DNA of 32,000 bases from Vibrio cholerae ATCC 14035 (GTDB taxonomy: Bacteria > Pseudomonadota > Gammaproteobacteria > Enterobacterales > Vibrionaceae), in contig NZ_JHXR01000002.1 in NCBI RefSeq assembly GCF_000621645.1, forward strand, positions 300,001 through 332,000, given 5' to 3'. Under the pieces are notes generated by a model. The model ran no database searches. It saw nothing but the letters and a program-made list of their open reading frames with translations, and had not been told where the DNA came from. Positions 4,814-32,000 of this stretch are shown here, in pieces. Within the stretch, counting starts at the first letter, position 1; every line of letters begins with the position of its first letter. The translations under genes were made by a program, and so were the position numbers.

Positions 4814-4828
4814 GTTTACACTGTAAAC
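4814..4828. other. parS2: parS2-type centromere site (ParB2 binding consensus NTTTACANTGTAAAN)
   Basis: GTTTACA-C-TGTAAAC is a perfect 7-1-7 palindrome. It is intergenic, between the operon stop (4872) and the fapA-like gene. It is one of three copies of the 13-mer core in this window. Confidence 0.7.
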
Positions 4829-4871
4829 CGTACGGCAAAGGTCAGTAAGCCATGCCAACAAAACAATAACG

Positions 4872-10629: not shown

Positions 10630-12666
10630 TTAGAATTCTTCCCATTCGTCACCTTCTTCTGCCGCCCGAGCTGGCATTTTATGTACGGCCTGATTTATCG
10701 GTGCTTTATGCATGCTAACCACAGGCTTGGTTTTGGGTGGCGTTGATTGGCGAGGTTTGCGCTCAAAAGTGGTGACATTATTTTCGGTGACAAAGAAATT
10801 CATCAAATTAAGCAGCTCTTTTCCTTCATCTTTGAGTGACTGACTCGCCGCTGATGTTTCTTCCACCAGTGAAGCGTTCTGCTGGGTCATTTCATCCATA
10901 GCAGCAATCGCTCGGTTGATTTCATCAATGCCCGTGGATTGCTCCACACTGGAAGCGGCGATCTGTGCAATCAGATCCGAGACTCTCACTACCGCTTCAA
11001 CAATTTCTTTAAGTGTCGATCCCGATTCATTGACTAAGCGTGAGCCTTCATTCACCTTATCGACACTATCGTTAATCAAACCTTTAATCTCTTTCGCCGC
11101 TCCGGCACTACGCTGCGCGAGATTACGCACTTCTCCGGCAACCACGGCAAAGCCACGCCCTTGTTCACCGGCCCGCGCCGCTTCTACCGCAGCATTCAGA
11201 GCCAACAAGTTGGTTTGGAAAGCGATTTCATCAATCACGCTAATGATGTCCGCAATTTTCTTACTGGCGGTATTGATTGCCCCCATCGCGCTGATGGCTT
11301 CACCAACCACTTCTCCGCCTCGGGCAGCTTTTTTCGCCGCATCGGTCGCAAGTAGATTGGCATCTTTCGCGTTATCCGCATTTTGACGCACGGTTGCTGT
11401 TATCTCTTCCATACTGGCGGCAGTTTCTTCCAAGTTAGAAGCCTGAGCTTCCACACGCTGGCTGAGATCGTTATTGCCATCCGCTATCTCTGTAGAAGCG
11501 GTCGCAACTCGAGCAGAAGAAACGGTAATTTTGTCGACCATATTGCGTAGGTTCACAATCGAAGCGTTGACCGCACTGGCTAATCGACCAAATTCGCCTT
11601 GGTACTCTTCAGACATGCTGGTATTGAGATCGCCTTCAGCCACTCGGCTCATCACCGTAATACACTGGCCCAATGGTTCCACCAGCGTGTTAAGCAAGTT
11701 ATTGATGCCATCTCCCAACTCACGCATAAAACCGTTGTAGCCACTGGTATTGATCCGGTCATGCAGGTCACCTTTAATCGCTTTTTGGATCAAAGACTCC
11801 ACTTGGCGCTGGCCATCACGCTGCTCGGTGATATCTACCCATTGCAACGCAGGACCTATGTATTCGCCTTTTGTATCGCGCATCGCAATACAAGTCAGAT
11901 TAAACTCTAAAGAGCCCACTTTGATCATGGAGGTGAAAGGCAAGCGTTCTGGGTTACTAATGATCGAACGCTGATGTGCAGGATTTTTATGGAAAATGTC
12001 GATATTTTTCCCCACCAACTCCGCGGCTTTAAAGCCGGGAAAGGCCTGCGCGAGTTCTGGTTCACGGTGGGTCAACAGTTGTAACAGTGCGGGGTTAAGA
12101 TATTGAATAATCCCCTCTTTATCCGCCATCATCAAATTCGTCGTCATGCCTTCGACCGCCGAAGCTAAACGACCTATTTGCTGATCACGCAAGAGCTCTT
12201 CGGTCACATCACGCCATTCCAAGGTATTGCCAATGTAAGAACCACGATCATCAATAATCGCGCCTACAATCAGCTCGATTTTTACTCCTTTGATGTTGAT
12301 GACGGTGGTGTAGGGTAAATGGCTCGGATCCGCGAGCATGGTGCGCTGATGGCGAGGGTTAAGATGAAAATGGTCAATGCAGTAGCCATGTAAAAAATCG
12401 GCCTCGGCACGAAAATCAGGCCAGACGCTACGAAACAACGTTTCGTGTTGTTTTAGCAGCTTGAGCGTTTGATTATTGAAGTAGGTGATCCGAAAGTCGC
12501 GATCTATCATCATCAGTGCTGTTTGTGCCGCATTGAGTGCGGAAAGCAATTGATAGTTAGATAAACCGCTTTGGGTCTCCGACTCGTCAAATTCGCTCGT
12601 GGCGCTCTCCTTGGCTGGCTCAACAAACTGGGGCACAACCTGTTGTTTACGATTCCAAAATGCCAT
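10630..12666 (-). CDS. aer2: Soluble chemoreceptor Aer2 type: PAS-PAS-HAMP array-MCP signalling domain
   Basis: 678 aa with no TM segment. Two PAS domains carry paired His motifs ([11 protein letters not shown] and [11 protein letters not shown]), and Trp is at residue 276 (PALQW276VD). Signalling hairpin: [35 protein letters not shown]. The C-terminal pentapeptide is EWEEF. Confidence 0.9.
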
Positions 12667-12679
12667 GTGTCTTCCCTCG

Positions 12680-13141
12680 TTATATGCTTTCGGCAGTGGT
12701 GCTTAAGCGCAGCGCCTCAACGTCGAACAGCGCATCAATATCAATAAGAACAAGATGTTTGCTTTTCACTGCCGCAATTCCTTTCACGTATTGGTTGCCG
12801 ATCACAGTGGAAATACTGGGCGCATGTTTGATCTCTTGCTCAGACAAGGCATACACCTCAGCGACCGCATCCACAATCAGCCCCAACGGCTGCTGATTCG
12901 CCGCATTAATCACCACCACCACTGTGGTGGCGTTAATTTCAACCGGTACTAAGCCTAAGCGACGCTTCAGATCGACAATCGGAATGTACTCGCCACGAAT
13001 ATCCAACAAGCCAATCACAAACGGTGGCGCATTAGGCAGGATGCGCACAGGACTCCATCCACGCACTTCACGCACTTCCAGAATCGGGATGCCGTACTCT
13101 TCATCATCTAAAACGAAACTGAGAAATTCACGCTGCATCAT
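12680..13141 (-). CDS. cheW: Chemotaxis coupling protein CheW
   Basis: 153 aa single CheW domain ([18 protein letters not shown]...[20 protein letters not shown]). The start overlaps the upstream cheW stop (ATGA). Confidence 0.9.
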
Positions 13142-13665
13142 GCTTGTCCCTCATTAAGGATTCGGTCCATATCCAGCAATGCATCACTGTCTAGCAAAGA
13201 CATCACCTCATCCCCGACATTCAAAATGCCACTTAAAAAAGGCACCACCATGCTCTCACCGATTGCCGGATGCAGCGGCATATCGCCTTGGCCAATCACA
13301 TCGCTGACGGAATCAACCACTAAACCCATCAGGCGTTTTTGCTCTTGTTCGCGAGCACTCAAGATCAAGACAACCGTTGTTGGCAAATACTCGTATTGGG
13401 TGAGTCCAAAGCGTTGACGTAAATCGATAATGGGAACAATCATGCCGCGCAGGTTAATCACGCCTTTAACAAAATGCGGCGCTCTCGGGATCGGCGTAGG
13501 TTTTTCCCAAACGCGGATCTCTTCGACATGAGATAAGGTCACCCCGTAAAGCTCAGTTCCGAGCATAAAACTTAAAAAATCTGCGCCCCCAGTCAGCCCC
13601 ATATCCATCGACAAGATTGGCTCAAGAGCGGCACTGGATGATGTGGTCAAATTCGCTGAATTCAT
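13138..13665 (-). CDS. cheW: Chemotaxis coupling protein CheW (second copy, with an N-terminal extension)
   Basis: 175 aa CheW domain (FMLGTELYGVTLSHVEEI...GVINLRGMIVPIIDLRQRFG). AGGAG lies 5 nt before the ATG. Confidence 0.9.
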   Translation of the reverse strand: MNSANLTTSSSAALEPILSMDMGLTGGADFLSFMLGTELYGVTLSHVEEIRVWEKPTPIPRAPHFVKGVINLRGMIVPIIDLRQRFGLTQYEYLPTTVVLILSAREQEQKRLMGLVVDSVSDVIGQGDMPLHPAIGESMVVPFLSGILNVGDEVMSLLDSDALLDMDRILNEGQA

Positions 13666-21502: not shown

Positions 21503-21517
21503 GTTTACAGTGTAAAT
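21503..21517. other. parS2: parS2-type centromere site
   Basis: GTTTACA-G-TGTAAAT. The 13-mer core TTTACANTGTAAA is perfect. Intergenic, just after the ABC operon terminator. Confidence 0.7.
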
Positions 21518-21640
21518 ACGATTACCCCAAGCAACTTAAAGTGGCTGATAAGCAGCAAATAGGAAGGGATACACAGTCAATGGTGCAGGTAAACCGATAA
21601 TCCACATGGATTAACCCTTTGGTTTATCTCATACCGTTTT

Positions 21641-21657
21641 CTTAAGCGAGTATTAAG
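21641..21657. promoter_or_regulatory. PmrA/BasR-box-like direct repeat in the eptA promoter
   Basis: CTTAAG-cgagt-ATTAAG. On the opposite strand it reads CTTAAT-N5-CTTAAG, a perfect YTTAAK-N5-YTTAAK. TATAAA lies 10 nt downstream, and 50 nt separate the box from the ATG at 21708. Confidence 0.55.
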
Positions 21658-21707
21658 AAACCCCATTTATAAATGGCTTAACGTTCACAGAATTTAGCGT
21701 GGTCATC

Positions 21708-23350
21708 ATGCCGACATTCAACATTAAGCCATTCTCCTATCTCCAATTAGTCTTTTTGCTGGCAGCCTATTTTGCGCTGCCACTCAATCTTCCGGTTTAC
21801 GCTCAATTAGCGCATATTTTCAACCAATCTACGTCCCTTGATTGGGGATTCGCCCTCTCTATTCCGTTATTTTTCCTGTTTGCACTGAATTTTATCTTCC
21901 AGATTTTCAGTTGGCCTTACTTGTTCAAGCCTTTTTTGCTGTGTTACTTGTGCTGTCGGCCTTAATCAGCTTCGCTGGCTTTCAATACGGTGTGATTGTC
22001 GATCAAGATATGTTAGTGAATGTGTTGGAAACCGACCGCGGCGAAGCGGGATCTTATCTCACAATCTACTCTGTACTTTGGTTGCTCGGGTTTGGCCTCG
22101 TGCCTGCGCTAGCTCTGCTTTTTACCCCAATCCGCCCAGAAAAAAGTGCCCTGCGTTTTTTGATGAAAAAGGGGCTATCCATGCTGGTTTCCGTTGTCGT
22201 GATTGGCGTGATCGCTGGGCTTTATTATCAGAATTACTCGTCCGTTGGACGCAACAACAGCTCACTCAAAAAAATGATCATCCCGACCCATTTTCTCTAC
22301 AGCAGTTTTGGGTTAGTCAAACAGCGCTATTTCACGGAACCAATGGTGTATCAGGAGATCGGTCAGGATGCGCAGCAAAAGCCAAGCGCCGTTCGTCAGG
22401 CAACCCAAAAGCCGACCTTAGTGTTTTTTGTGTTAGGTGAAACTGCACGAGTACAAAACTACCAATACTTGGGTTATCCGCGTGATACCAATGCTTATAC
22501 CGCCCCTTTCCAGCCGATCTTTTTTAAAGATGTGGCGAGTTGCGGTACAGCAACCGCCGTTTCAGTGCCTTGTATGTTCTCCAACATGAATCGCCAAAAT
22601 TTTGATCGCTCTCGGGCGGACAACCAAGACAATGTGCTGGATATTCTGCAGCGTGCGGGCATCAGTCTGCTCTGGAAGGAAAATGACGGTGGCGATAAAA
22701 ATGTCGCGAAGAATATCCCGCTTAAAGAGTTAGCTAGAGATAACCGAGAAGGGATTTGCGATGGCGACACCTGTTACGACATTGCGATGTTAGAGAATTT
22801 AGATCAGGAGATCGCCACGCAGCAGGGCAACCGAATGATTTTCATGCATTTCATCGGTAGCCACGGCCCCACTTACTTTAAACGTTACCCAAAAGAGATG
22901 GCAGTTTACCAGCCTGACTGCCCAAGAGCAGATATTGAAAACTGTAGCGTCGAGCAGATCGTAAACACGTATGACAACACCATTCGCTACAGCGACTATG
23001 TGATGTCGCAGCTCCTCGCTAAGCTCGATTCACTGCAAGACCGATATAATACCGCGCTGATTTATATCTCCGATCATGGTGAATCATTAGGTGAAAATGG
23101 CCTGTTTTTGCATGGTATGCCCTATAGCCTAGCGCCTGAGTACCAGACTCGAGTCCCTCTCCTTATCTGGATGTCCTCTGGGTTTAGCCAAAGTAAAGGG
23201 ATTGATGTTGAATGCCTGCGCAGCAACAGTGAATTACCTTATGCGCACCAGAATCTGTTTCACTCACTGCTCGGCGTGATGGATGTATCAACCAAAGCGT
23301 ACCAAGCCAATTTGGATCTGTTTGCGAAGTGTAGAACCAGCCAATCTTAG
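21708..23350 (+). pseudogene. eptA: Lipid A phosphoethanolamine transferase EptA/PmrC family, reading frame broken in a T6 run (21932-21937)
   Basis: The N-terminal TM region (21699/21708..21965) and the remainder (from about 21929 to 23350) are in different frames. Joining them at the T run gives ...SWPYLFKPFFAVLLVLSAL..., colinear with E. coli EptA. Span 1643 nt; adding one T gives 547 codons. Sulfatase-fold motifs: SCGTATAVSVPCMFS (Thr nucleophile), HFIGSHGPTY, YDNTIRYSDY, ISDHGESLGENG. Confidence 0.8.
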
Positions 23351-23396
23351 CCATACCCAAACAACTTAGCCTTAGGTAGCGGGCAAATGAGTGCAT

Positions 23397-23430
23397 CCCC
23401 AAGAGCATAGGCAAGCTCTATGGCTTGGGG
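23397..23430. terminator. Strong hairpin between the convergent eptA and sensor-kinase genes (no U tract)
   Basis: CCCCAAG-ag-CATAG-gcaagct-CTATG-g-CTTGGGG: 7+5 bp stems, a small internal loop and a 7-nt loop. No T run on either strand, so its function as an intrinsic terminator is uncertain. Confidence 0.35.
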
Positions 23431-23501
23431 TAAACGAACGTAGCCAACACCGCGACAACGTTAAGCAGGAAGGGGATAAAGCCACATGATAAGTTAGGAC
23501 G

Positions 23502-24917
23502 TTATTCGCAATTGCGAAAACGAACAACAAAGGTATTACGCTCATCAGTACGTGGCAGCAAGAGCACTTGACCGCCATGAAGCGCTGCAATATCACGACA
23601 GATCGACATGCCAAGCCCTGCGCCATCGCCTTTTTGGCTGTTGGCACGGTAGAAGTTATCAAACATTTTTTCACGAGTCAGATCGTCAATCGCGGCCCCA
23701 GTATCCGACACACGCACTTCAATCTCACCATCGTGGTCGCTAAGCTCTACCGCTATCTGGCTAGAGTGGCCGGAATAACGAATGGCATTATCCAGCAGAT
23801 TTTTAAATAAAATGCCCAGGAGTAACTCATCTCCCCATAAACGCGAACTTTCGCCATGAAAACTCAGCTGCTGATCCTGCTTAAAAGCGATAGGTGCTAA
23901 ATCCGCTATCACTTGTTTAATGACGTTTGCCAGCTCAACCGGCTGTTTCCTTAAGGTTTGTGTACTTTCTACTTTGGCCAGCATTAAGAGCTGATGAATC
24001 AATCTATCGGTGCGCTCTATACCTTTGAAAATACGTTCTAAATCTTGCTTTAACTGTTCCTGATTGGTGCTACGCAGGGCATTTTCGGCATTCACTCTTA
24101 AAACGGTCAGCGGGGTTTTTAACTCATGTGCCGCCATTCGAGTAAAACGTTTCTCACGCTGCCATGCTTGCTCTAGCTCATTGAGCAGTTGATTCAACGT
24201 CTCCACCAAAGGCAAAAGTTCCACCGTAGGTTTTTCGACATAAATTCGATCTAGCTTATGGATGCTGCGCAGAGCAATCGCTGCTTTCAGCGCTTGGATT
24301 GGCTGAAAGCTACGTTCAATCAGCACCACCAAAACCACAATCAAGCACAGAATTAAAATTAATTGCGGAAGTGCGGTGGATAAGGCGATCTCATTAATCG
24401 CTTCATCACGAATGCTTTGCTTTTCTGCAACCAAAACATACTGTTTACCCTTTTCTTGATCAGGGAGACTCAACTGGAAATAACGCCAGCTTTCGCCGTT
24501 GAGCGTGATATCACTAAAACCATTCGCATCACGGCCAAGACTCAGCGCAGGCAAATGAGTATCAGAGCTAAAGAGAAGATCGCCCTCTCGATAAAACTGG
24601 AATAATAAATACTGTTCATACGGGTGGCCAAAGAGCGTGGCGACATCATCGTTGGCTTTGGAAAGGCGCTGAATATGCTGCATCCACAGATTGAACTGCT
24701 CATGCTGATTACGATCTGCAAATTCATTGGCCGAAACAGAAGTGGCGATCAGTAATAATTTGGCGGACTGCCCAAGACGGGCATCGTACACTTCTCCCAC
24801 TTCATGTTGGGCGTTGGAATAACTGAACCCAAACGAGACCAGCATCAAACCGGTACTCAGCAAAACAGAAGTCAGGGTAAGTCGGCGTTTAATGGAAAAG
24901 AGAGGTTTATTTTTCAA
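23502..24917 (-). CDS. Sensor histidine kinase, BasS/PmrB/QseC family
   Basis: 471 aa: TM1, a ~150-aa periplasmic domain, TM2, HAMP. H box MAAHELKTPLT, N box LLDNAIRYS, G1 DTGAAID, G2 GAGLGMSICRDIA. The only available start is the TTG at 24917, overlapping the regulator gene by 11 nt. Confidence 0.85.
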   Translation of the reverse strand: MKNKPLFSIKRRLTLTSVLLSTGLMLVSFGFSYSNAQHEVGEVYDARLGQSAKLLLIATSVSANEFADRNQHEQFNLWMQHIQRLSKANDDVATLFGHPYEQYLLFQFYREGDLLFSSDTHLPALSLGRDANGFSDITLNGESWRYFQLSLPDQEKGKQYVLVAEKQSIRDEAINEIALSTALPQLILILCLIVVLVVLIERSFQPIQALKAAIALRSIHKLDRIYVEKPTVELLPLVETLNQLLNELEQAWQREKRFTRMAAHELKTPLTVLRVNAENALRSTNQEQLKQDLERIFKGIERTDRLIHQLLMLAKVESTQTLRKQPVELANVIKQVIADLAPIAFKQDQQLSFHGESSRLWGDELLLGILFKNLLDNAIRYSGHSSQIAVELSDHDGEIEVRVSDTGAAIDDLTREKMFDNFYRANSQKGDGAGLGMSICRDIAALHGGQVLLLPRTDERNTFVVRFRNCE

Positions 24918-25563
24918 TCATGTACCCCACACCTCGTACATTTTTAACCAGATTATCCGGCAATTTTTTGCGCAGATTATGAATATGTACTTCGATTGCG
25001 TTATCACTGCTGCCTTCATCCCAGCCGTGCAGTGCTTGCTGCAAAAGCTCTTTACTCATCACTCTTCCCGCTTGGGTCATCAAACTGGCGAGGATTTTGT
25101 ACTCATTTCGCGTTAATTTCAGAGCTTGCTGAGCGTAGTAGATTTCTTGTTTAGAGAGCGAAAGGTCAAGTTCCCCAACGGAGATGAGCTCCTCTGCGCT
25201 CCCTGAGCTACGACGAATGATCAAGCGTAAACGTGCGAGCAGCTCTTCGAGCGCAAACGGCTTACCTATGTACTCATCTGCACCGCCATCCAACCCTTTG
25301 ACCCGATCACTGATATCATCCCGTGCCGTGAGTATCATGACAGGCAATGTATAACCCGCTCGCCGAATTTGGCGCAGGACTTCCAAGCCATCCATATCTG
25401 GCAAGGTGAGGTCCAAAATCAGTGCCGTAAATTGCTCGGTTTTCAGGGCGGTCACGACGCCACCACCCCGCTCCAGCCAGTCAACCGTATAGCCTTGTCG
25501 GCTTAACGCTACTTGCATTGATTCACCGAGCAACGTGTCATCTTCAACTAATAGTAAACGCAT
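24907..25563 (-). CDS. OmpR-family response regulator, BasR/PmrA/QseB subfamily
   Basis: 218 aa from the ATG at 25563 (MRLLLVEDDTLLGESM...); the ORF-track start at 25740 runs into the upstream gene. Close to E. coli BasR motif by motif: LDLTLPDMDGL, YTLPVMILTARD, GLDGGADEYIGKPFALEEL, EVHIHNLRKK, VRGVGYM. Confidence 0.9.
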   Translation of the reverse strand: MRLLLVEDDTLLGESMQVALSRQGYTVDWLERGGGVVTALKTEQFTALILDLTLPDMDGLEVLRQIRRAGYTLPVMILTARDDISDRVKGLDGGADEYIGKPFALEELLARLRLIIRRSSGSAEELISVGELDLSLSKQEIYYAQQALKLTRNEYKILASLMTQAGRVMSKELLQQALHGWDEGSSDNAIEVHIHNLRKKLPDNLVKNVRGVGYMIEK

Positions 25564-25567
25564 AAGG

Positions 25568-26200
25568 TTACTTGATGCTCTCCAATAAGTGCGCAATCTC
25601 TTCCTGACGTCCCGCATCCGCAATTTCTCGTTTCGGTCTTGCGGGTGCATGCTGAGCTTGCAGTAAATAGCGCTTTGCCTCTGCGCTACGGCCTTCTTGT
25701 AGCAAAAAATCTCCGTAGAAATAGTTGGCATCAATGCCATTGGGATTCACGGTCAAGGCTTGTTTAAGCAGCTGCTCTGCTTTTTCTTTATCCCCAAAGG
25801 CGACAGGCCAACCCGGCACTTTATAGTATAGCGTGCCCAAACTGGTCAACGCGGAGCCTTCCAGAGTATTTGGCGCTTGCGCGATGACCTCTTCAAATAA
25901 ACTTTTGGCCTCTTTCACCAGCGATAAAGCCCCCAATCCGCCCCTCACTCCCGCTAAAGAAGATTGGTTGATGGCCAGCCACACTTTCAACTCGGGGTTA
26001 TCGCCCGAAATCGTTAACTCCAGTCGATTACGCGCGATCGTGCGTTCAAAACAGCGCTCTTGCTCCTTAGCAGAAGCGGTACGGTATTGGCATTTTGCCC
26101 AATCCGTTTGCACTTGTTCTAAAGGCGTAATCGCGTAACTTGAGTGGGCATACCCGAGCAACAGTGCGCTAAGACTCATCCATTTAAGCATAATGTTCAT
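25568..26200 (-). CDS. Secreted TPR-like repeat protein (periplasmic), unknown function
   Basis: 210 aa from the ATG at 26200, with AAGGAG 8 nt upstream. Signal peptide MNIMLKWMSLSALLLGYAHSSYA. TPR-like helical repeats (LGTLYYKVPG..., AEQLLKQALTVNPNGIDANYFYGDFLLQEGRSAEAKRYLLQA). Confidence 0.7.
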   Translation of the reverse strand: MNIMLKWMSLSALLLGYAHSSYAITPLEQVQTDWAKCQYRTASAKEQERCFERTIARNRLELTISGDNPELKVWLAINQSSLAGVRGGLGALSLVKEAKSLFEEVIAQAPNTLEGSALTSLGTLYYKVPGWPVAFGDKEKAEQLLKQALTVNPNGIDANYFYGDFLLQEGRSAEAKRYLLQAQHAPARPKREIADAGRQEEIAHLLESIK

Positions 26201-26227
26201 AAACTCTTCTCCTTGAATTATCACGCT

Positions 26228-27025
26228 TTAGCGATTTAAAAATGACAATAAGACGGGTTGTTGCTTTCTAATTGCCCGAGAAACCAAGCTCGGCAGTAGT
26301 TGGTTAAGACGCACCAGAAGTTTCTCCGGCCAACCGATCCACATGACGTTTTGCTCCGTTTCAATCATTTTGGCCACCTGCGCAGCAACCAAGGAAGGCT
26401 CATCACTGCGATTCCCCAGTGCTCGATTGAGCTGTTGAACGGCCTCACTGTTGAGCGAAGTATTGGTGGCTCGTGGCGCTAAATAGAGCACTTTCATTCC
26501 CGTCCCCGCGAGCTCTCGGTTCATCGCTTCGCTAAAACGGTGCAATCCCGCTTTCGCGGCACAATAGCTGGCATAGCCCGGATACCCTATCGCCCCGAGA
26601 CTGGAACCAATATTGATGACCATCTGCGGTTTACGGCTCCATTGCAAAACATGGTGCATGATTTGGATTGGCGTCATTAAATTCAGAGCTAACTCACGCT
26701 GCACCGACTCCATCGAACGACGCGCCAACAAACAGAACTGATTGGTCCCTGCATTATTGATCACGACGGCGATGCGCTGCTGGGCGCGGTTTAATTCTTC
26801 CACCAAAGCCTGCAGTTGCTCCATTCCCGCTTCACTGGTTAAATCTGCGCTCACAACCCGATGCAGCTCAGGCTTGGGGAGTGATTGACGCAATGCTTCA
26901 AGTTTTTGCGCATCACGCGCTAACAAGATTAACCGCGCACCACGCGCCGCTAAAGTATGGGCGATAGGCTCGCCAATGCCACCTGAAGCGCCCGTTAACA
27001 ACACATATTGTTGATGAATGTCCAT
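26228..27025 (-). CDS. Short-chain dehydrogenase/reductase (SDR)
   Basis: 265 aa. Cofactor motif TGASGGIG, then NNAG, and active-site YCAAK. AGGAGG lies 5 nt before the ATG. Confidence 0.9.
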   Translation of the reverse strand: MDIHQQYVLLTGASGGIGEPIAHTLAARGARLILLARDAQKLEALRQSLPKPELHRVVSADLTSEAGMEQLQALVEELNRAQQRIAVVINNAGTNQFCLLARRSMESVQRELALNLMTPIQIMHHVLQWSRKPQMVINIGSSLGAIGYPGYASYCAAKAGLHRFSEAMNRELAGTGMKVLYLAPRATNTSLNSEAVQQLNRALGNRSDEPSLVAAQVAKMIETEQNVMWIGWPEKLLVRLNQLLPSLVSRAIRKQQPVLLSFLNR

Positions 27026-27034
27026 AAACGCCTC

Positions 27035-27718
27035 CTAAGCTGCCTGTTGCTGGGTCTGGGGCAGTAATTCACGCAACATCTGCCCATACAGATAAAACAC
27101 CTGATTCGCCGAGTGGATAATCGCTTGCTGATCCTCTTCCGCGGTAATTTTGTCCATTAAGGATTCGAAGAAGCGAATGTGGTCTTGATCCAGTTCACTG
27201 TGTGAGGTGAGATAGCTCATGGCTTTAGCAGGTAAATTGAGCTGCTGTTTGACCAAGCGCGCTATGTTGCCGCCCACGCCCACACTCGTCCCTTCGAGCA
27301 CCCAGACCATACCAAACAACGCGAGCGGATTGGCGCGATCAATCTGGTGGTAAAGATAAGCGACCATCAATTCAATCGGTGTACTGACTTGCCCCACCCC
27401 TTGGTTATTTCGCACCGCTTGAGCATCACCACCACAAACTCGAATATCATTGAGGATCCATTCTTGGTGACCTTTCTCCTCATCGATATAGTCGGCAATG
27501 GCAATGCGCACCCACTCATAACGATCACTCAATCGTCCCCCACACGCCATTAACAGTGGTACGGTATGTTTGACGTGATGGTAGGCTTGGGTCAAAAAGC
27601 TTAAGTACATGTCAAGCGTGATCTCGCCGCGAGCACAAGCTGCAAATACTGGAGCTTGTAACATCTGTTGCTGAGCCGCTTGCGTCTCTTTTTGTAAACG
27701 TTGAAAAAATCCTGTCAT
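27035..27718 (-). CDS. Heme-oxygenase-like fold, putative di-iron redox enzyme (iron-containing redox enzyme family)
   Basis: 227 aa from the ATG at 27718, with GAGGAG 7 nt upstream. All-helical sequence with ligand-type motifs AYHHVKH, DEEKGH (ExxH), VLEGTS and SELDQDH (DxxH), spaced as in TenA/PqqC/UndA-like proteins. Confidence 0.6.
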   Translation of the reverse strand: MTGFFQRLQKETQAAQQQMLQAPVFAACARGEITLDMYLSFLTQAYHHVKHTVPLLMACGGRLSDRYEWVRIAIADYIDEEKGHQEWILNDIRVCGGDAQAVRNNQGVGQVSTPIELMVAYLYHQIDRANPLALFGMVWVLEGTSVGVGGNIARLVKQQLNLPAKAMSYLTSHSELDQDHIRFFESLMDKITAEEDQQAIIHSANQVFYLYGQMLRELLPQTQQQAA

Positions 27719-27760
27719 GAGAGTTCTCCTCATCGTGAGCCTCAAAGAGGCCCGAACGAC

Positions 27761-29284
27761 TTACCGTGAAATGTCGCCAATACCGCTACCGCTTCTTGCC
27801 GGAAGGGGATACAGGTATTGCCAATTGAGGTCGGGCGCATTACGCACTCGACGAAAAGTGTGCTGCGCGTTCTCAATCAACGCTCGCTTGGGTCGGCCAT
27901 TGGCCGTCAACCAAGCCTGCCATGCGCTCGGCTGATTGACGAAAAGCAGTTGTTGGATCTGTGCGTAGTCGGGTAACTGATGATTTATTTGTTGCACACG
28001 TTGCTCCAGATCGGGCATTAGGCGATCAATCACAGCCACTAACCCCACCTCATCATCGCCGACCACCACGAAACGGCATTGCGGTAACCAAACTTGCGCG
28101 TGAGACTCAATCCATTCCGGTGCGATGTTGCGCCCAAACGGAGTAATGATGAGATTTTTTTTGCGCCCTACGATACAAAGAAATCCCTGCTCATCGAGTG
28201 TCGCCAGATCACCCGTGGCAAGCCATTCGTCGGTCAATGGCTCGCCGATATAACCCAGCGCACTATTGCCACGAACCCACAATTCACCATCTTCAGCCAA
28301 TTGGATTTGTAGATGGCTCAGCGGCTTGCCACAACTACCGGGCTGGTCATGTTGCGGTGTATTCATGCTAACCACCGAAGCGCATTCAGAAAGTCCATAG
28401 CCTTCATAAGCAGGAATGCCCAGAGCTCGTGCGCTATGGATAAGTTCAGCCGCAACGCGCGCGCCCCCTACCGCCACCCATTGCAGCGACTTCGCCAACT
28501 CGGGAGCCTGTTTCACCACCTGAATCAGCGCCATCAATAACGCTGGGGTAAGAACCAAACTGGATGGCTGATAAACGCTCAATACGTTGGCAAACTGAGT
28601 GGGAGAAAATTGACTAGAGCCAGACAGCCCTACCGATTCACCAAACAGTACGCTTGAAGTCACCCCGAGCAACAAAGGCACGTAAATTCCTGTGATATTT
28701 TCCAGCAGCGTGGCGAGCGGCAACATCACCAAATGCTGCTCAACTTGCGCGCTCATCTGCTCTGCGATGGCCAGCGTAACGCGCTCTAGATTTTCTTCAC
28801 TCAAACAAACACCTTTCGGGGTGCCTGTTGAGCCAGAGGTGAACGTGATTTTTTGTGTACCCGCCAAAACGCGATTGGGTCTATTCCTCGGTTTATTGCC
28901 CTGATAGTGCCAAGCGTCAAAGCCACCGACTGTCAGTGAAGGCGAACCCAACTCAGGCCAATCACCAAGACAGAGTTCAACATTCGCCTCATTCAGTAAA
29001 TGAGCGACTTGTTCTGATGTAAAAAAGGTCGGGACAGGAACCATAACGATGTGTGACCACATCGCGGCTAAATCGAGCGCAACCCAGTCGACACTGTTTT
29101 GTGCACGTAATGCGATGCAGTTTGCGGATAACCGCTGCAGCTGATTAGCGATCAGGTCGACTCGCTCTAACAGTTGAGAATAATTGAGAGCTATCCTCTC
29201 TTGCTGAGCGTTATGGCCAACAAAAGCCATTTTCTGCGGTTGGTGCAAGGCATGCTGCTGCAGCGCAGCGAGAATTCGATTCAT
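27761..29284 (-). CDS. AMP-dependent synthetase/ligase, fatty-acyl-AMP/CoA ligase-like
   Basis: 507 aa. Adenylation motifs: TFTSGSTGTPKGV (A3), EGYGLSE (A5), TGDLATLDEQGFLCIVGRKKNLIITPFGRNIAPEWIE (A7-A8; the GxNIAPxxIE form is typical of long-chain acyl ligases). Confidence 0.85.
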   Translation of the reverse strand: MNRILAALQQHALHQPQKMAFVGHNAQQERIALNYSQLLERVDLIANQLQRLSANCIALRAQNSVDWVALDLAAMWSHIVMVPVPTFFTSEQVAHLLNEANVELCLGDWPELGSPSLTVGGFDAWHYQGNKPRNRPNRVLAGTQKITFTSGSTGTPKGVCLSEENLERVTLAIAEQMSAQVEQHLVMLPLATLLENITGIYVPLLLGVTSSVLFGESVGLSGSSQFSPTQFANVLSVYQPSSLVLTPALLMALIQVVKQAPELAKSLQWVAVGGARVAAELIHSARALGIPAYEGYGLSECASVVSMNTPQHDQPGSCGKPLSHLQIQLAEDGELWVRGNSALGYIGEPLTDEWLATGDLATLDEQGFLCIVGRKKNLIITPFGRNIAPEWIESHAQVWLPQCRFVVVGDDEVGLVAVIDRLMPDLEQRVQQINHQLPDYAQIQQLLFVNQPSAWQAWLTANGRPKRALIENAQHTFRRVRNAPDLNWQYLYPLPARSGSGIGDISR

Positions 29285-29294
29285 CTTTCACTAC

Positions 29295-29897
29295 TCACGC
29301 TTGCTTTTGATTAAGGTGTAATTGATTGAGATGGGTGCAACCATGCACTAAATTGCCCGCCAAAATACGCGGACGGTGCTGATAGTAAGTTCCCCAGATT
29401 TGAGAAGCATTGGGAATACGAGCTGGAGAAGCTTGGGCAATCAAGGTGAGTTGCAGGCCAAAACGACGCATCAGGGCATGCAGAGGATCGGTTGCAGTAA
29501 AAATGCACCACTCAAACCCCATGGCGACCAACTGCTGTGCCATCAAACGAAAGTGAAACGCTGAAAGCCCGCGACCAAAAGAAGCAAGATGGCCAAATTC
29601 AATCAACTTGCCACGAGGTATCGGACATGCAAAACGTTGTGCAAGAAGACGATCGGCAGGCTCATCGAGATATTGTTCAAGAAACAGCGGCTCTTGCTCT
29701 GCAATCCGGTATCCACAGACAGACTTCATGACCTGTTTATCAAGTAGCGCTAAATAAGCAGGCATATAAGCGGTGAGGTGGGCATCAAACGCTTGCTGAT
29801 AGCGCTCATCAACCAGTTTGATCGCCTCATTCCAACGTGGATGCGTGGGTGTAATGACTTCCAGTGTCAAATCGGCTAGACAAGGTAGAGGTTTCAT
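29295..29897 (-). CDS. dth: 'Thermostable hemolysin' (delta-VPH) family protein; probably an acyltransferase-fold enzyme rather than a toxin
   Basis: 200 aa. No signal peptide or amphipathic/TM segment. I recognise the sequence type of the Vibrio delta-VPH/Dth family (LEVITPTHPRW...YLALLDKQ...VCGYR...IEFGHLASF). AGGGA SD before the ATG at 29897. Confidence 0.65.
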   Translation of the reverse strand: MKPLPCLADLTLEVITPTHPRWNEAIKLVDERYQQAFDAHLTAYMPAYLALLDKQVMKSVCGYRIAEQEPLFLEQYLDEPADRLLAQRFACPIPRGKLIEFGHLASFGRGLSAFHFRLMAQQLVAMGFEWCIFTATDPLHALMRRFGLQLTLIAQASPARIPNASQIWGTYYQHRPRILAGNLVHGCTHLNQLHLNQKQA

Positions 29898-29944
29898 TGG
29901 TGTTTCCCTTTGCTTACTCTGTAAGTCAAAAGTAATCCACCTAA

Positions 29945-29961
29945 CTTAAGAATCCCTTAAT
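29945..29961. promoter_or_regulatory. PmrA/BasR-box-like direct repeat in front of the dth-to-kinase gene array
   Basis: CTTAAG-aatcc-CTTAAT, a perfect YTTAAK-N5-YTTAAK (ATTAAG-N5-CTTAAG on the gene strand). TACTTT lies 10 nt downstream on the gene strand, and 47 nt separate the box from the ATG at 29897. An extra CTTAAA is at 29974-29979. Confidence 0.55.
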
Positions 29962-30070
29962 ATACCGAAACGACTTAAATTAGCAGCTCGCCAGCCAATA
30001 CGTTCATCCTGATGAGCAGAGACAAGTTCGATGCTTGAGGCAAACCCACCTAGCCAGCACCGCCGCAACG

Positions 30071-32000
30071 TCAAATAGGTAAAGTATATTTACACTGTAA
30101 ATTCACAAGCAAAGCCAAGATTTCCGTTCGCACCGCTTGCTCGACTTGCCGCTTCCCACTTAACTGAAACTGCTCGGCACAGGCCGCCCAACTTTTACGC
30201 TGCAGAATTTTACTGATCAACAAAGGGGATAGGCTCTCTAGTGATGGAGCCGTTGCCAGTAGCCAAGCATAAAGCCACACCGCCACGCTTTCGTAATTTG
30301 CTCCACCTCGCGCGTAACGCTCGATCAATTCTAAAGGGATCAGAGGTTGAGGCAATGCGACAGTGCTAGGTAAAAGCTGTTGGATGATTTGTGGCTCCAA
30401 CGCTTGTAGAGAATCACTGAGTTCAAAAATCCAATGCGCACTAAACTGCTGTTTGGCTTGCTCCAACCAATCGAGATGCTCTCCGCGCACCATCAAGAGA
30501 GAGTAACAACCACTCGCCTGATCTCGATGCGAACCGAGTTTTATTGGTACGAAGTGGTTAGCTAGCCAAAATGGCAACAAATCTTCACTCACCCCGAAGC
30601 TGGTGGCGTAATAATCCGCGTGATGCTGCGCAATAAAATGGGTCAACAATTGGCTACCTATACCTTGGCGTTGGCAGTCGGGATGGACGGCAATGCGTAA
30701 TATTCGCCAACAAGATTGGCGCGCCGCTTGGCTAATTCCTAATTGATTCGCCAAAGTCACGGGGGTTAAATGCCCTTTCGGACGCCGCGTTCCCAGTTGA
30801 ATCGCCTCAATCGTCGGCGCGTCTAACTCCCCTTCACGGACCGCCAAAACGCAACCGACGCACACCTCTCCTTGATAAGCGACGAACAACGTCATCGCTT
30901 CATCTTGCAGTAAAGCAAAGAGATCGTTGGGCGAGGTTTGATAATGCGCATTGACCAAAAGTGCAAACACTTGTGCTAATCGCTCAGGTTGCTCCACACA
31001 CTCAGGCTGACTGAATAAAGAAAAAGACAGCGGTTCTCTCGCCTGCTCTAGGGCAACTTCAGGCAACTCACTTTGTAGAAGAAATACCTGATTTTGCCAC
31101 TGTTCCAGCGCATCCCCCGCCGCCCAGCGGATCGGCTGCTCAAGATGCAGTGAGCGCATCTGCGGGCGCTGTACTTGCAACCAACTCTGAAATTTTAGAG
31201 AAAAACCGCGCCCACACCCTTCGTAGCCATGAATGGTCGAAGAAAATACTGCGCGGTGATAGCGCTCCACCCAACGTTTTAAAAATGGCAACGGCAGCGC
31301 AGCGGCTTCGTCGACCAGCAATAAATCACTCTCAGGTTGAGTGCGCAGTAGCTCATCCGGAGCCATAAAACGTAAGCTTGACTGTGCCGTTTGCACCTCA
31401 CCGCGCTGGCGATGGGCTTGCGGTAATGTGCGCTGGGCATGCACAAACAGCGGCTCCACGGCAGCCAAAGTAGGTGCAGTCACCACAATATGCATAGAGC
31501 GCGATGACATCAGCTCTGCGGCCGCCAATCCCAGTGCGCTGGTTTTTCCACGCCCGCGATCGGCAGTCAGCACTAAAGGACGCTTGCGATGCCCAGTCAC
31601 GACTTTAATGATGCTGTCGATCGCCAATCTTTGTTCGGTATAAGTTTGTTCGGTATTCGTTCGCGTAACCGAATCCGAATTGGGTAAAGCCGGCACCGTT
31701 TGTGGCGTAATCACAAGCAAGCGATGACAAGCGCGCTCTAGCCAGACTCGCGCACAATGGTTGAGCGTAGTCGGTTCGCCAACCACCAACAGTAATCCGC
31801 CGCCCACCAAGGTACCCAGCACCGCATTAAAGCTATTGGCATCCCAACCTTGCGTTAAATCTACGATCAGGAGTTGGCATTCTCGCCCTAACCATTGCTG
31901 ACCTTGGCGATAGTCGACACAAGTCACACCCTCTAGCTCAGTTTGTCCTAACATCAATATCGGTTGTTCGGCAAAGTGCGGAACAAGTGTTTTCAATAAG
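30071..32000 (-). CDS. tmcA: tRNA(Met) cytidine acetyltransferase TmcA (helicase-like ATPase + GNAT); the 5' end probably lies beyond the window
   Basis: At least 641 aa. Walker A ADRGRGKTSALG, DEAA Walker B (LLLVDEAAALP), GNAT motif RIAVHPDCQRQGIGSQLL. The frame stays open to base 32000; the TTG at 31996 is only the ORF caller's start. Confidence 0.85.
   Translation of the reverse strand, partial: LLKTLVPHFAEQPILMLGQTELEGVTCVDYRQGQQWLGRECQLLIVDLTQGWDANSFNAVLGTLVGGGLLLVVGEPTTLNHCARVWLERACHRLLVITPQTVPALPNSDSVTRTNTEQTYTEQRLAIDSIIKVVTGHRKRPLVLTADRGRGKTSALGLAAAELMSSRSMHIVVTAPTLAAVEPLFVHAQRTLPQAHRQRGEVQTAQSSLRFMAPDELLRTQPESDLLLVDEAAALPLPFLKRWVERYHRAVFSSTIHGYEGCGRGFSLKFQSWLQVQRPQMRSLHLEQPIRWAAGDALEQWQNQVFLLQSELPEVALEQAREPLSFSLFSQPECVEQPERLAQVFALLVNAHYQTSPNDLFALLQDEAMTLFVAYQGEVCVGCVLAVREGELDAPTIEAIQLGTRRPKGHLTPVTLANQLGISQAARQSCWRILRIAVHPDCQRQGIGSQLLTHFIAQHHADYYATSFGVSEDLLPFWLANHFVPIKLGSHRDQASGCYSLLMVRGEHLDWLEQAKQQFSAHWIFELSDSLQALEPQIIQQLLPSTVALPQPLIPLELIERYARGGANYESVAVWLYAWLLATAPSLESLSPLLISKILQRKSWAACAEQFQLSGKRQVEQAVRTEILALLVNLQCKYTLPI
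30088..30102. other. parS2: parS2-type centromere site, inside the last codons of tmcA
   Basis: ATTTACA-C-TGTAAAT, a perfect 7-1-7 palindrome. It lies in the codons for ...NLQCKY... of the tmcA 3' end. Confidence 0.7.

Follow-up and report, generated by a model that had tools for sequence, protein, structure and literature searches.

A predicted PmrA-type operon in Vibrio cholerae that groups the "thermostable hemolysin" gene with candidate acyl-tailoring enzymes and shares a promoter box with eptA

In Vibrio cholerae, the gene annotated as "thermostable hemolysin" (dth, VCA1111) heads seven co-directional genes that end in a two-component system (TCS) and converge on eptA. From the analysis of a 32,000-nt window of strain ATCC 14035 (contig NZ_JHXR01000002.1, positions 300,001 to 332,000 of the forward strand), we favor, with moderate confidence, the interpretation that VCA1111–VCA1104 constitutes a PmrA/BasR-family operon under its own control, whose amphiphilic acyl-amide or aminolipid-like product is co-deployed with phosphoethanolamine addition. 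The stretch belongs to chromosome II, runs from VCA1102 (eptA) to VCA1111 (dth) and matches the classical strain O395. The gene arrangement, first described in an earlier note made from the letters of the window, is confirmed, and that note's initial interpretation, an envelope-stress-controlled lipid-tailoring system co-regulated with phosphoethanolamine addition, is partly supported.

We posit that the response regulator (RR) binds the direct repeat CTTAAG-N5-CTTAAG, 10 nt upstream of the -10 element, and activates from the -35 position in the manner of PhoB and PmrA, turning on its own seven-gene operon and, separately, eptA. The first five genes would act as one conserved module, in which the ligase activates a carboxylic acid; the first gene product (Thl), a cytoplasmic LuxI/FeeM-type GNAT enzyme, couples this acid to an amine to give an amphiphilic acyl-amide (an N-acyl amino acid or an aminolipid-like compound); and a heme-oxygenase-like di-metal oxidase (HDO) and a short-chain dehydrogenase/reductase (SDR) tailor the result. 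A secreted, BstC-like tetratricopeptide repeat (TPR) protein would bind the product in the periplasm and hand it on toward the outer membrane or the outside, so that it is deployed along with phosphoethanolamine on lipid A, and the histidine kinase (HK) probably answers PmrB-type periplasmic signals (Fe3+ or mild acid). On this reading, the surfactant-like product would be the main source of the heat-stable hemolysis that accompanies expression of the first gene.

A conserved gene array and its promoter box

Our analysis reproduced the coordinates and strand of the array (minus strand, from 29897 down to 23502), its intergenic gaps of 10, 42, 9, 27 and 4 nt and its single 11-nt overlap, and the proposed gene order and families hold by Pfam and NCBIfam (T_hemolysin, AMP-binding, Haem_oxygenas_2, SDR, TPR, PmrA/QseB-like RR, QseC/PmrB-like HK). 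The array, its promoter elements and eptA are as follows:

29295..29897, minus strand: Thl, "thermostable hemolysin" (dth/VCA1111), candidate cytoplasmic GNAT-fold acyltransferase, LuxI/FeeM-like
27761..29284, minus strand: adenylate-forming (ANL) ligase, VCA1110/DthC, PF00501
27035..27718, minus strand: HDO candidate, PF14518, 107 bits
26228..27025, minus strand: SDR oxidoreductase, NCBIfam PRK09072 equivalog
25568..26200, minus strand: signal-peptide TPR protein, BstC/TPAT-T-like by phmmer and Foldseek, probable periplasmic lipid binder
24907..25563, minus strand: OmpR/PhoB-family RR, PmrA/QseB-like, VCA1105, Response_reg and Trans_reg_C domains
23502..24917, minus strand: sensor HK, QseC/PmrB-like, TTG start, 11-nt overlap with the RR gene; 2CSK_N, HisKA and HATPase_c domains
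29945..29961, minus strand: PmrA-type box ATTAAG-GGATT-CTTAAG before Thl (exact TTAAG-N6-TTAAG site at 29960-29945)
29929..29934, minus strand: -10-like hexamer TACTTT, beginning 10 nt past the Thl box, read from the sequence, with the geometry found in about 40 related loci
21641..21657, plus strand: PmrA-type box CTTAAG-CGAGT-ATTAAG before eptA (exact TTAAG-N6-TTAAG site at 21642-21657)
21668..21673, plus strand: -10-like hexamer TATAAA, beginning 10 nt past the eptA box, same geometry as the Thl promoter
21708..23350, plus strand: eptA (VCA1102), frameshifted into two open reading frames (ORFs) in different frames, convergent with the kinase gene

A terminator scan, whose total over the window equals the shuffle expectation, found nothing terminator-like in any gap of the array, in agreement with the claimed absence of hairpins and U tracts. 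The further claim that five of the six downstream genes have their own Shine-Dalgarno holds approximately: the motif is clear for HDO (GAGGAG), SDR (AGGAGG) and TPR (AAGGAG), and weak or distant for the ligase, RR and HK. The HDO gene starts at ATG 27718, behind its GAGGAG; its longest ORF begins at TTG 27745.

That the seven genes form a single, presumably co-transcribed unit is in keeping with an order and tiny gaps that are conserved across classes of Proteobacteria. Scanning one genome per species with a Thl alignment confirmed at least 487 relatives; the 80 best-matching loci among them were retained (designated below by L numbers), and the window proteins were placed on these by tblastn. 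In this neighborhood search, of the kind the earlier note had proposed, order and tight gaps are kept in about 60 of the 70 evaluable loci. The order Thl-ligase-HDO-SDR-TPR-RR-HK, with all genes co-directional, holds in essentially all Vibrionaceae and recurs in Methylophaga, Porticoccus, Lysobacterales, Sulfuriflexus, Pseudomonas alcaligenes and metagenome-assembled genomes of Betaproteobacteria. Cassette-linked RR orthologs are 40–98% identical, and those in the groups outside Vibrionaceae just named 40–53%, versus 27–38% for unrelated RRs of the same loci. The ligase gene adjoins the 3' side of Thl in 77 loci (median gap 20 nt), and the Vibrionaceae loci show a median spacing of 4 nt between TPR and RR and retain the RR/HK overlap of about 10 nt. 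Thl-ligase-HDO-SDR-TPR lacks an adjacent TCS in Brevundimonas, Bordetella, Nitrospiraceae and Pectobacterium. Since the TPR gene accompanies the four enzymes in loci lacking the TCS, it is part of the enzyme module and not of the TCS.

The element shared with eptA is a PmrA-box-like repeat, which had been described before the array and again before eptA. TTAAG-N6-TTAAG occurs exactly twice in the 32 kb (0.03 expected by shuffles), once 47 nt 5' of the Thl ATG and once 50 nt 5' of the eptA ATG. The PmrA/BasR site is YTTAAK-N5-YTTAAK, and activators of the PhoB/PmrA type stand in for the -35 element, a geometry that corresponds to box, 10 nt and -10 hexamer. The spacing from box to TAnnnT is exactly 10 nt in about 40 loci as well as at both window promoters. 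Of the loci with an adjacent TCS, 55 of 60 carry the box, with at most one mismatch, in the 250 nt that precede Thl; of those without, one of ten does, against a background rate of 1.3% per 250-nt window (Fisher p = 3e-7, for loci that are phylogenetically non-independent), and half-site variants among related loci include CTAAG, TTAAT and CTTCAG. The sharing with eptA extends beyond V. cholerae, since each eptA near a cassette has its own box, whether it is convergent with the array (L001, L002, L036), downstream of it (L016, L021), placed after the FTR1 trio described below (L049) or immediately upstream (L056). A direct repeat at the -35 position of both its own operon and eptA, by which a PmrA regulon can be recognized, is thus both present and conserved. 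Because the box is conserved, its spacing to the -10 element is fixed and every nearby eptA is preceded by one, autoregulation of the operon and its co-regulation with eptA are well supported as predictions from phylogenetic footprinting.

Pectobacterium has the five-gene module without an adjacent TCS, yet carries CTTAAG-N5-ATTAAT in the upstream intergenic region. In Pectobacterium brasiliense (L083, 833-9627) the five genes overlap and adjoin a Tn3-family transposase and resolvase; the module is divergent there from a cytochrome b561-like (Ni_hydr_CYTB) gene, and the shared intergenic repeat, followed by TATAAC, is oriented to the cytochrome gene. Two further variations on the half-site were seen in Vibrio: a third half-site-like hexamer, TTTAAG at 29973-29978 (minus strand), precedes the Thl box by 12 nt and is confined to V. 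cholerae, and V. genomosp. F10 (L018) carries CTTAAG half-sites in tandem, three to four of them at 11-nt spacing.

The "hemolysin", its partner enzymes and the TPR protein

Thl is 99% identical to the V. cholerae "thermostable hemolysin" and matches PF12261 (T_hemolysin) with 201 bits against a cut-off of 27; the family comprises about 2,200 representative clusters. Its AlphaFold2 (AF2) model (pLDDT 93) is a compact alpha/beta GNAT fold, for which the ten best Foldseek matches include the acyl-homoserine lactone (AHL) synthases LasI, TofI and MesI and the N-acyl amino acid synthase FeeM, with probability 1.0, E-values of 6e-8 to 1e-6 and TM-scores of 0.55–0.60; EsaI, BjaI and RpaI were also matched, which extends the E-values to 1e-5, and ordinary acetyltransferases rank behind. 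The description "small acyltransferase-like protein" is therefore right at the level of the fold, the model being LuxI/FeeM-like. By sequence, PF12261 was the only Pfam match at E<=0.01, with no membership in Autoind_synth or Acetyltransf_5, and a profile search of the PDB returned nothing at E<=1. Among the positions that do not vary are R64, the LFLEQYL motif, R95 and the WG.YY motif. The N-terminus shows no signal peptide or hydrophobic signal in the sequence, and instead of the secretion signal and membrane-inserting architecture of a pore-forming toxin we find a compact GNAT model. In our reading, the "hemolysin" is most likely the acyltransferase of a biosynthetic module.

A product-borne hemolysis, which the earlier note had raised, has a direct parallel in the literature. 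A hemolytic N-acyl glycine made by a Bacteroidales N-acyltransferase offers a published precedent, N-acyl amino acids being able to disrupt membranes (PMC11631085, citing Lynch 2017), and a small-molecule product would account for both the heat stability and the supernatant activity without a signal peptide (PMC4046660). On the other side, purified recombinant deltaVFH, a homolog, is reported to be cytotoxic and lipid-binding by itself (PMC11033176), a result weighed below. The pairing of Thl with the ligase is found also in a Serratia variant operon, where the two are accompanied by a TauD-type oxygenase and an efflux pump and which is up 184-fold in an rsmA mutant (PMC4046660).

The ligase is a PF00501 member with conserved ANL core motifs (TSGSTGTPKG, YGLSE, TGD and GR). 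It had been called "long-chain-type", which is unsupported: its closest solved relatives are MenE, oxalate-CoA ligase, FadD13 and adenylation (A) domains of non-ribosomal peptide synthetases (NRPS), with MenE and oxalate-CoA ligase as the top PDB matches, and it falls under every NCBIfam cut-off, the MenE and long-chain models giving equal scores. At residues ~460-470, the site of the A10 catalytic lysine (usually SGKxxR) reads NGRPKR, with N-G-R-P kept in at least 80% of 75 orthologs; the usual A10 lysine may be replaced or shifted. The HDO candidate matches PF14518 (Haem_oxygenas_2) with 107 bits against a cut-off of 28.9, and its best PDB matches are 3DDE and CADD; its ligand set (EExGH, the E in VLEG, and HxxxDxxH) aligns with that of CADD/3DDE and is conserved in 54 orthologs. 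The SDR exceeds the cut-off of the NCBIfam PRK09072 equivalog (386 versus 238 bits).

The TPR protein carries a signal peptide, MNIMLKWMSLSALLLGYAHSSYA, as read from its sequence. A phmmer search of the PDB links it to the sterol-binding protein BstC (7T1S, E 2.3e-8, 25% identity), and Foldseek with its AF2 model (pLDDT 90) places BstC (TM 0.68) and the TPAT T-components 8G52/8G53 at ranks 1–4, followed by the lipid-transfer TPR domain of PTPIP51. It scores 40.6 bits against the 350 of the NCBIfam BstC equivalog, and no RND or TRAP partner genes were found near it in the examined neighborhoods. Two cysteines just past the signal peptide, C37 and C50, do not vary among 21 orthologs and may form a periplasmic disulfide. 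Faint Pfam matches to RMD1-3 and TAtT also occur in some TPR orthologs.

Sensing, signal and competing readings

The RR combines a receiver with a winged helix (Response_reg, Trans_reg_C) and is paired with a membrane kinase bearing HisKA and HATPase_c, the domain make-up of a PmrAB pair; the HK is called as 471 aa in O395. PmrB of enterics senses Fe3+. The TCS adjoining V. cholerae eptA has been called "still uncharacterized", and eptA is acid-induced (PMC12064563). Our analysis gives this TCS, still so described in 2025, a predicted site, a predicted regulon and a possible link to acid-/iron-induced polymyxin resistance. The literature that we searched for the operon as a whole turned up no functional study: one V. 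parahaemolyticus paper has only a STRING-type association of VP1735 with VP1729 and VP1731 (PMC10469919), and PMC12208996 uses the name DthC for VCA1110, after the "dth region" of Fallarino et al. 2002.

Several points weigh against the operon reading that we favor. At the sequence level there is no tie of the Thl family to the LuxI, FeeM or OlsB families, and the TM-scores are only 0.55–0.60. The RR and HK stay below the NCBIfam cut-offs for PmrA (246 versus 330 bits), PmrB (170 versus 314), QseB (205 versus 345) and QseC (216 versus 475). The periplasmic domain of HK is poorly conserved: the HEVGE (ExxE) motif after the first transmembrane segment (TM1) in V. cholerae falls in columns that are ~60-80% conserved among 60 orthologs. 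The module encodes no carrier protein, O-acyltransferase or exporter, and the 80 loci are those closest to the Vibrio Thl, so that the TCS-linked fraction is biased upward. Finally, for purified His-SUMO-deltaVFH, the V. fluvialis homolog, secretion, killing of THP-1 cells and binding of phosphatidylserine (PS), phosphatidic acid (PA) and phosphatidylinositol phosphates have been reported (PMC11033176).

The deltaVFH data therefore keep in consideration a reading that we nonetheless regard as quite improbable, namely that the annotation is correct and VCA1111 is a secreted protein hemolysin or cytotoxin which binds host membrane lipids, the neighboring enzymes and TCS being a "virulence cluster" that only regulates or accompanies it. 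The induction of pyroptosis by recombinant deltaVFH, along with its binding of PS and PA (PMC11033176), fits such a toxin, as do the hemolytic activities reported for cloned dth and delta-VPH (cited in PMC4046660), and on a Pseudoalteromonas plasmid the hemolysin, clustered with QseBC, an iron transporter and acyl-CoA synthetases, has been interpreted as part of a virulence cluster (PMC6262041). A toxin is at odds, however, with the missing signal peptide and with an enzyme fold of the GNAT type that has invariant polar residues, and also with an adenylating enzyme that nearly always follows within ~20 nt of the Thl gene. The family's ~2,200 clusters, and the presence among the 80 loci of free-living marine, soil and wastewater Proteobacteria and of Nitrospiraceae, speak against it too, and a protein purified from E. 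coli could bring bound product along. Should Thl instead be a biosynthetic acyltransferase, a conserved bacterial metabolite awaits identification, and delta-VPH/dth, routinely scored as a virulence marker in Vibrio and Aeromonas genome papers, would have been misread.

The possibility that the cluster serves housekeeping lipid scavenging, with DthC as a redundant acyl-CoA/acyl-ACP synthetase for exogenous fatty acids in a catabolic or recycling pathway, appears to us the most remote of those considered. It draws on a vca1110 transposon mutant that elongated fed C13:0 to C15:0 and not to C17:0; the same study attributes the AasS activity to VC2484 and regards what was seen with vca1110 as secondary (PMC12208996). 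Moreover, the module contains no beta-oxidation genes, and the conserved partners of DthC, encoded with it behind a PmrA-type promoter, are a GNAT protein, an HDO, an SDR and a periplasmic TPR protein.

The neighbors of the cassette outside Vibrio raise a different question, that of the signal. Downstream of the kinase gene, about 10 gammaproteobacterial loci carry genes for a cupredoxin-like protein, an FTR1 iron permease and an outer-membrane-like protein, and in TCS-less loci the five-gene module is divergent from genes for an ECF sigma factor, a FecR-type anti-sigma factor and a TonB-dependent transducer with an STN domain. Both settings point to an iron link. The swap of a PmrB-like kinase for FecA/FecR/ECF beside the same cassette is the most intriguing unexplained feature of the comparison.

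One way to read these neighborhoods, which we consider unlikely, is that the product itself handles iron: an amphiphilic metal chelator would be made when the PmrB-like kinase or a FecA-type transducer senses iron, and would buffer or import Fe3+. An N-acyl hydroxamate is one candidate, with HDO as the N-oxygenase and Thl as the enzyme that acylates the hydroxylamine. The cupredoxin/FTR1/outer-membrane genes after the kinase, the classic siderophore-signaling layout (ECF sigma, FecR, STN transducer) of Brevundimonas-type and other TCS-less loci, and the established response of enteric PmrB to Fe3+ all accord with this idea, as does the Pseudoalteromonas plasmid cluster in which a TCS, an iron transporter and acyl-CoA synthetases accompany Thl (PMC6262041). 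However, the cassette has no conserved association with an NRPS, NIS synthetase, flavin N-hydroxylase or dedicated uptake ABC transporter, FTR1 and a TonB receptor are both missing beside it in V. cholerae and the other Vibrionaceae loci, and PmrB-type sensors answer an excess of iron rather than its scarcity.

Alternatively, and with similarly low probability in our estimate, the operon could be a self-sensed signal loop, in which a diffusible acyl-amide made by the LuxI-fold synthase and its tailoring enzymes is detected in the periplasm by the TPR protein and the kinase in positive feedback, eptA being one output. Quorum-sensing systems such as phcBSR, cqsA/cqsS and rpfF/rpfC have a comparable synthase-sensor layout, the closest structural relatives of Thl are AHL synthases, and at most loci synthase genes and a sensor pair share one autoregulated operon; where the TCS is missing, the ECF sigma/FecR/TonB-dependent transducer beside the cassette is again a sensor of extracellular molecules. 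Against a loop stand Pectobacterium, Bordetella and others, which keep the five-gene module without an adjacent sensor, the PmrA-like character of an RR whose conserved extra target is a lipid A enzyme, and the TPR gene, which tracks the enzymes rather than the kinase; nor is a LuxR-type or other receptor conserved in the neighborhood. An evolutionary extension, equally doubtful, is that the five-gene module makes a secreted acyl-amide that is self-sensed through a receptor swapped in the course of evolution, with FecA/FecR/ECF sigma serving in Brevundimonas-type loci where Vibrio and many other Gamma- and Betaproteobacteria use a PmrB-like kinase. If this were true, a self-sensed acyl-amide would constitute a new, widespread class of LuxI-fold-based extracellular or metallophore signaling and would couple population or iron cues to lipid A remodeling via eptA.

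The cassette neighborhoods vary in other ways as well. The FTR1 trio lies at 17542-19579 in L045 and is found also in L046, L047, L049, L051, L060, L061, L067, L075 and L076, all non-Vibrio Gammaproteobacteria; its FTR1-family permease has a REGAE motif, and its outer-membrane-like protein, 240 aa long, has no Pfam match. The ECF/FecR/TonB arrangement occurs in L041 (5712-10065), L043, L052, L055, L059 and L064 (5654-9778). Further neighbors relate to the envelope: TamB is convergent with the module in L055, L057 and L064, and a PEMT/ICMT-like membrane methyltransferase gene lies 3' of it in L043 and L052. In Porticoccus (L045 at 12080-13547, and L060), the ligase and HDO genes of the cassette are separated by inserted genes for a SAM methyltransferase and a Kdo/WaaP-family LPS kinase.

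Known systems, eptA and other features of the window

Returning to the autoregulated operon that we favor, its architecture parallels pmrCAB/eptA-basRS of Salmonella and E. coli, with a biosynthetic module that is uncharacterized and widespread in the place of pmrC. Both have an OmpR-family RR and a kinase as the last genes of the operon, YTTAAK-N5-YTTAAK at -35, an envelope-modifying function upstream of the TCS genes and eptA in the same regulon. In contrast to those operons, five genes here replace pmrC/eptA, eptA is a separate convergent unit, the RR and HK lie under the PmrA/PmrB equivalog cut-offs, and the kinase has a large periplasmic domain of the QseC type (2CSK_N). In Pseudomonas aeruginosa, PA4773-PA4775-pmrAB directs surface spermidine synthesis. 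There, too, a small-molecule cassette is co-transcribed with PmrAB and autoregulated by it, and the product acts at the outer membrane against cationic peptides; its enzymes are polyamine enzymes, whereas the V. cholerae array has a ligase, a GNAT protein, an HDO, an SDR and a periplasmic TPR protein. AlmEFG of V. cholerae, which adds glycine to lipid A under VprAB/CarRS, similarly places an adenylating enzyme and an acyltransferase under a PmrA-like TCS in coordination with EptA, but the present array has no carrier protein, a GNAT rather than an LpxL-like transferase, an additional oxidase, reductase and TPR protein, and a different TCS.

The components have relatives of their own. FeeM/NasY, OlsB/GlsB and LuxI have the GNAT fold in common with Thl and are its best structural matches. 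Single genes from among these types confer antibacterial or hemolytic activity on E. coli via lipid products (PMC11631085). Unlike in those systems, the acyl donor here would probably come from a dedicated adenylating enzyme and not from acyl-ACP, and an OlsA-type second acyltransferase is lacking. The TPR protein resembles BstC of the Methylococcus BstABC sterol transporter and the T-components of TPAT (TatT-type) systems in being a secreted, all-helical TPR protein, and wherever a ligand is known in that group, it is a hydrophobic molecule bound in the periplasm; the V. cholerae protein differs in having no RND/TRAP partner nearby and in falling far below the BstC equivalog cut-off.

The convergent eptA with which the array was said to end tail-to-tail is indeed present, but a frameshift in it had been overlooked. 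The gene is split between frames into ORFs of 88 and 502 aa, which cover positions 6-73 and 55-535 of EptA/MCR models, and alignment with V. mimicus and V. metoecus places a 1-nt deletion near 21933 (AAGCC-TTTTTT versus AAGCCATTTTTT). Judged by its sequence, eptA is a pseudogene here. The 502-aa product is encoded identically in V. cholerae O395 (CP000626.1), and the frameshift fits with a passage of PMC12064563, citing Herrera 2017, according to which the eptA of classical O395 confers no resistance.

A 15-nt palindrome, TTTACAGTGTAAATA, was considered as a second shared operator, each of the two boxes having a copy ~125 nt upstream. It was rejected as such: copies of TTTACA-N-TGTAAA occur in the window at 21504-21518 and 30087-30101 and a third time at 4815-4829, in an unrelated intergenic region, and cholerae-clade loci keep copies where eptA is absent. 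Its half TGTAAA corresponds to the half-site for ParB2, which all ten parS2 sites share (PMC3688505). Because of the third unrelated copy, the persistence without eptA and the match to this half-site, we assign the palindromes from their sequence to the parS2 centromere sites of chromosome II, near oriCII, and their equal spacing to the boxes is probably coincidence. One copy lies inside the 3' end of tmcA.

The VCA1102–VCA1111 block is flanked upstream by a chemotaxis cluster and a peptide ABC transporter and downstream by tmcA. In a published comparison, every V. cholerae and V. metoecus genome examined had the block, which was missing from V. paracholerae (PMC8357300). The convergent spacer between eptA and the kinase gene contains a 12-bp hairpin with no U tract and folds no better than shuffles (z = 0.65). 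An Rfam search for known RNAs gave none within the array beyond one sub-threshold match after eptA: a full-length match to V_AS5 (Vibrio antisense RNA AS5) at 23351-23474 on the plus strand (40.7 bits versus a gathering cut-off of 96, E 4e-6), which starts straight after the eptA stop codon, in the convergent spacer.

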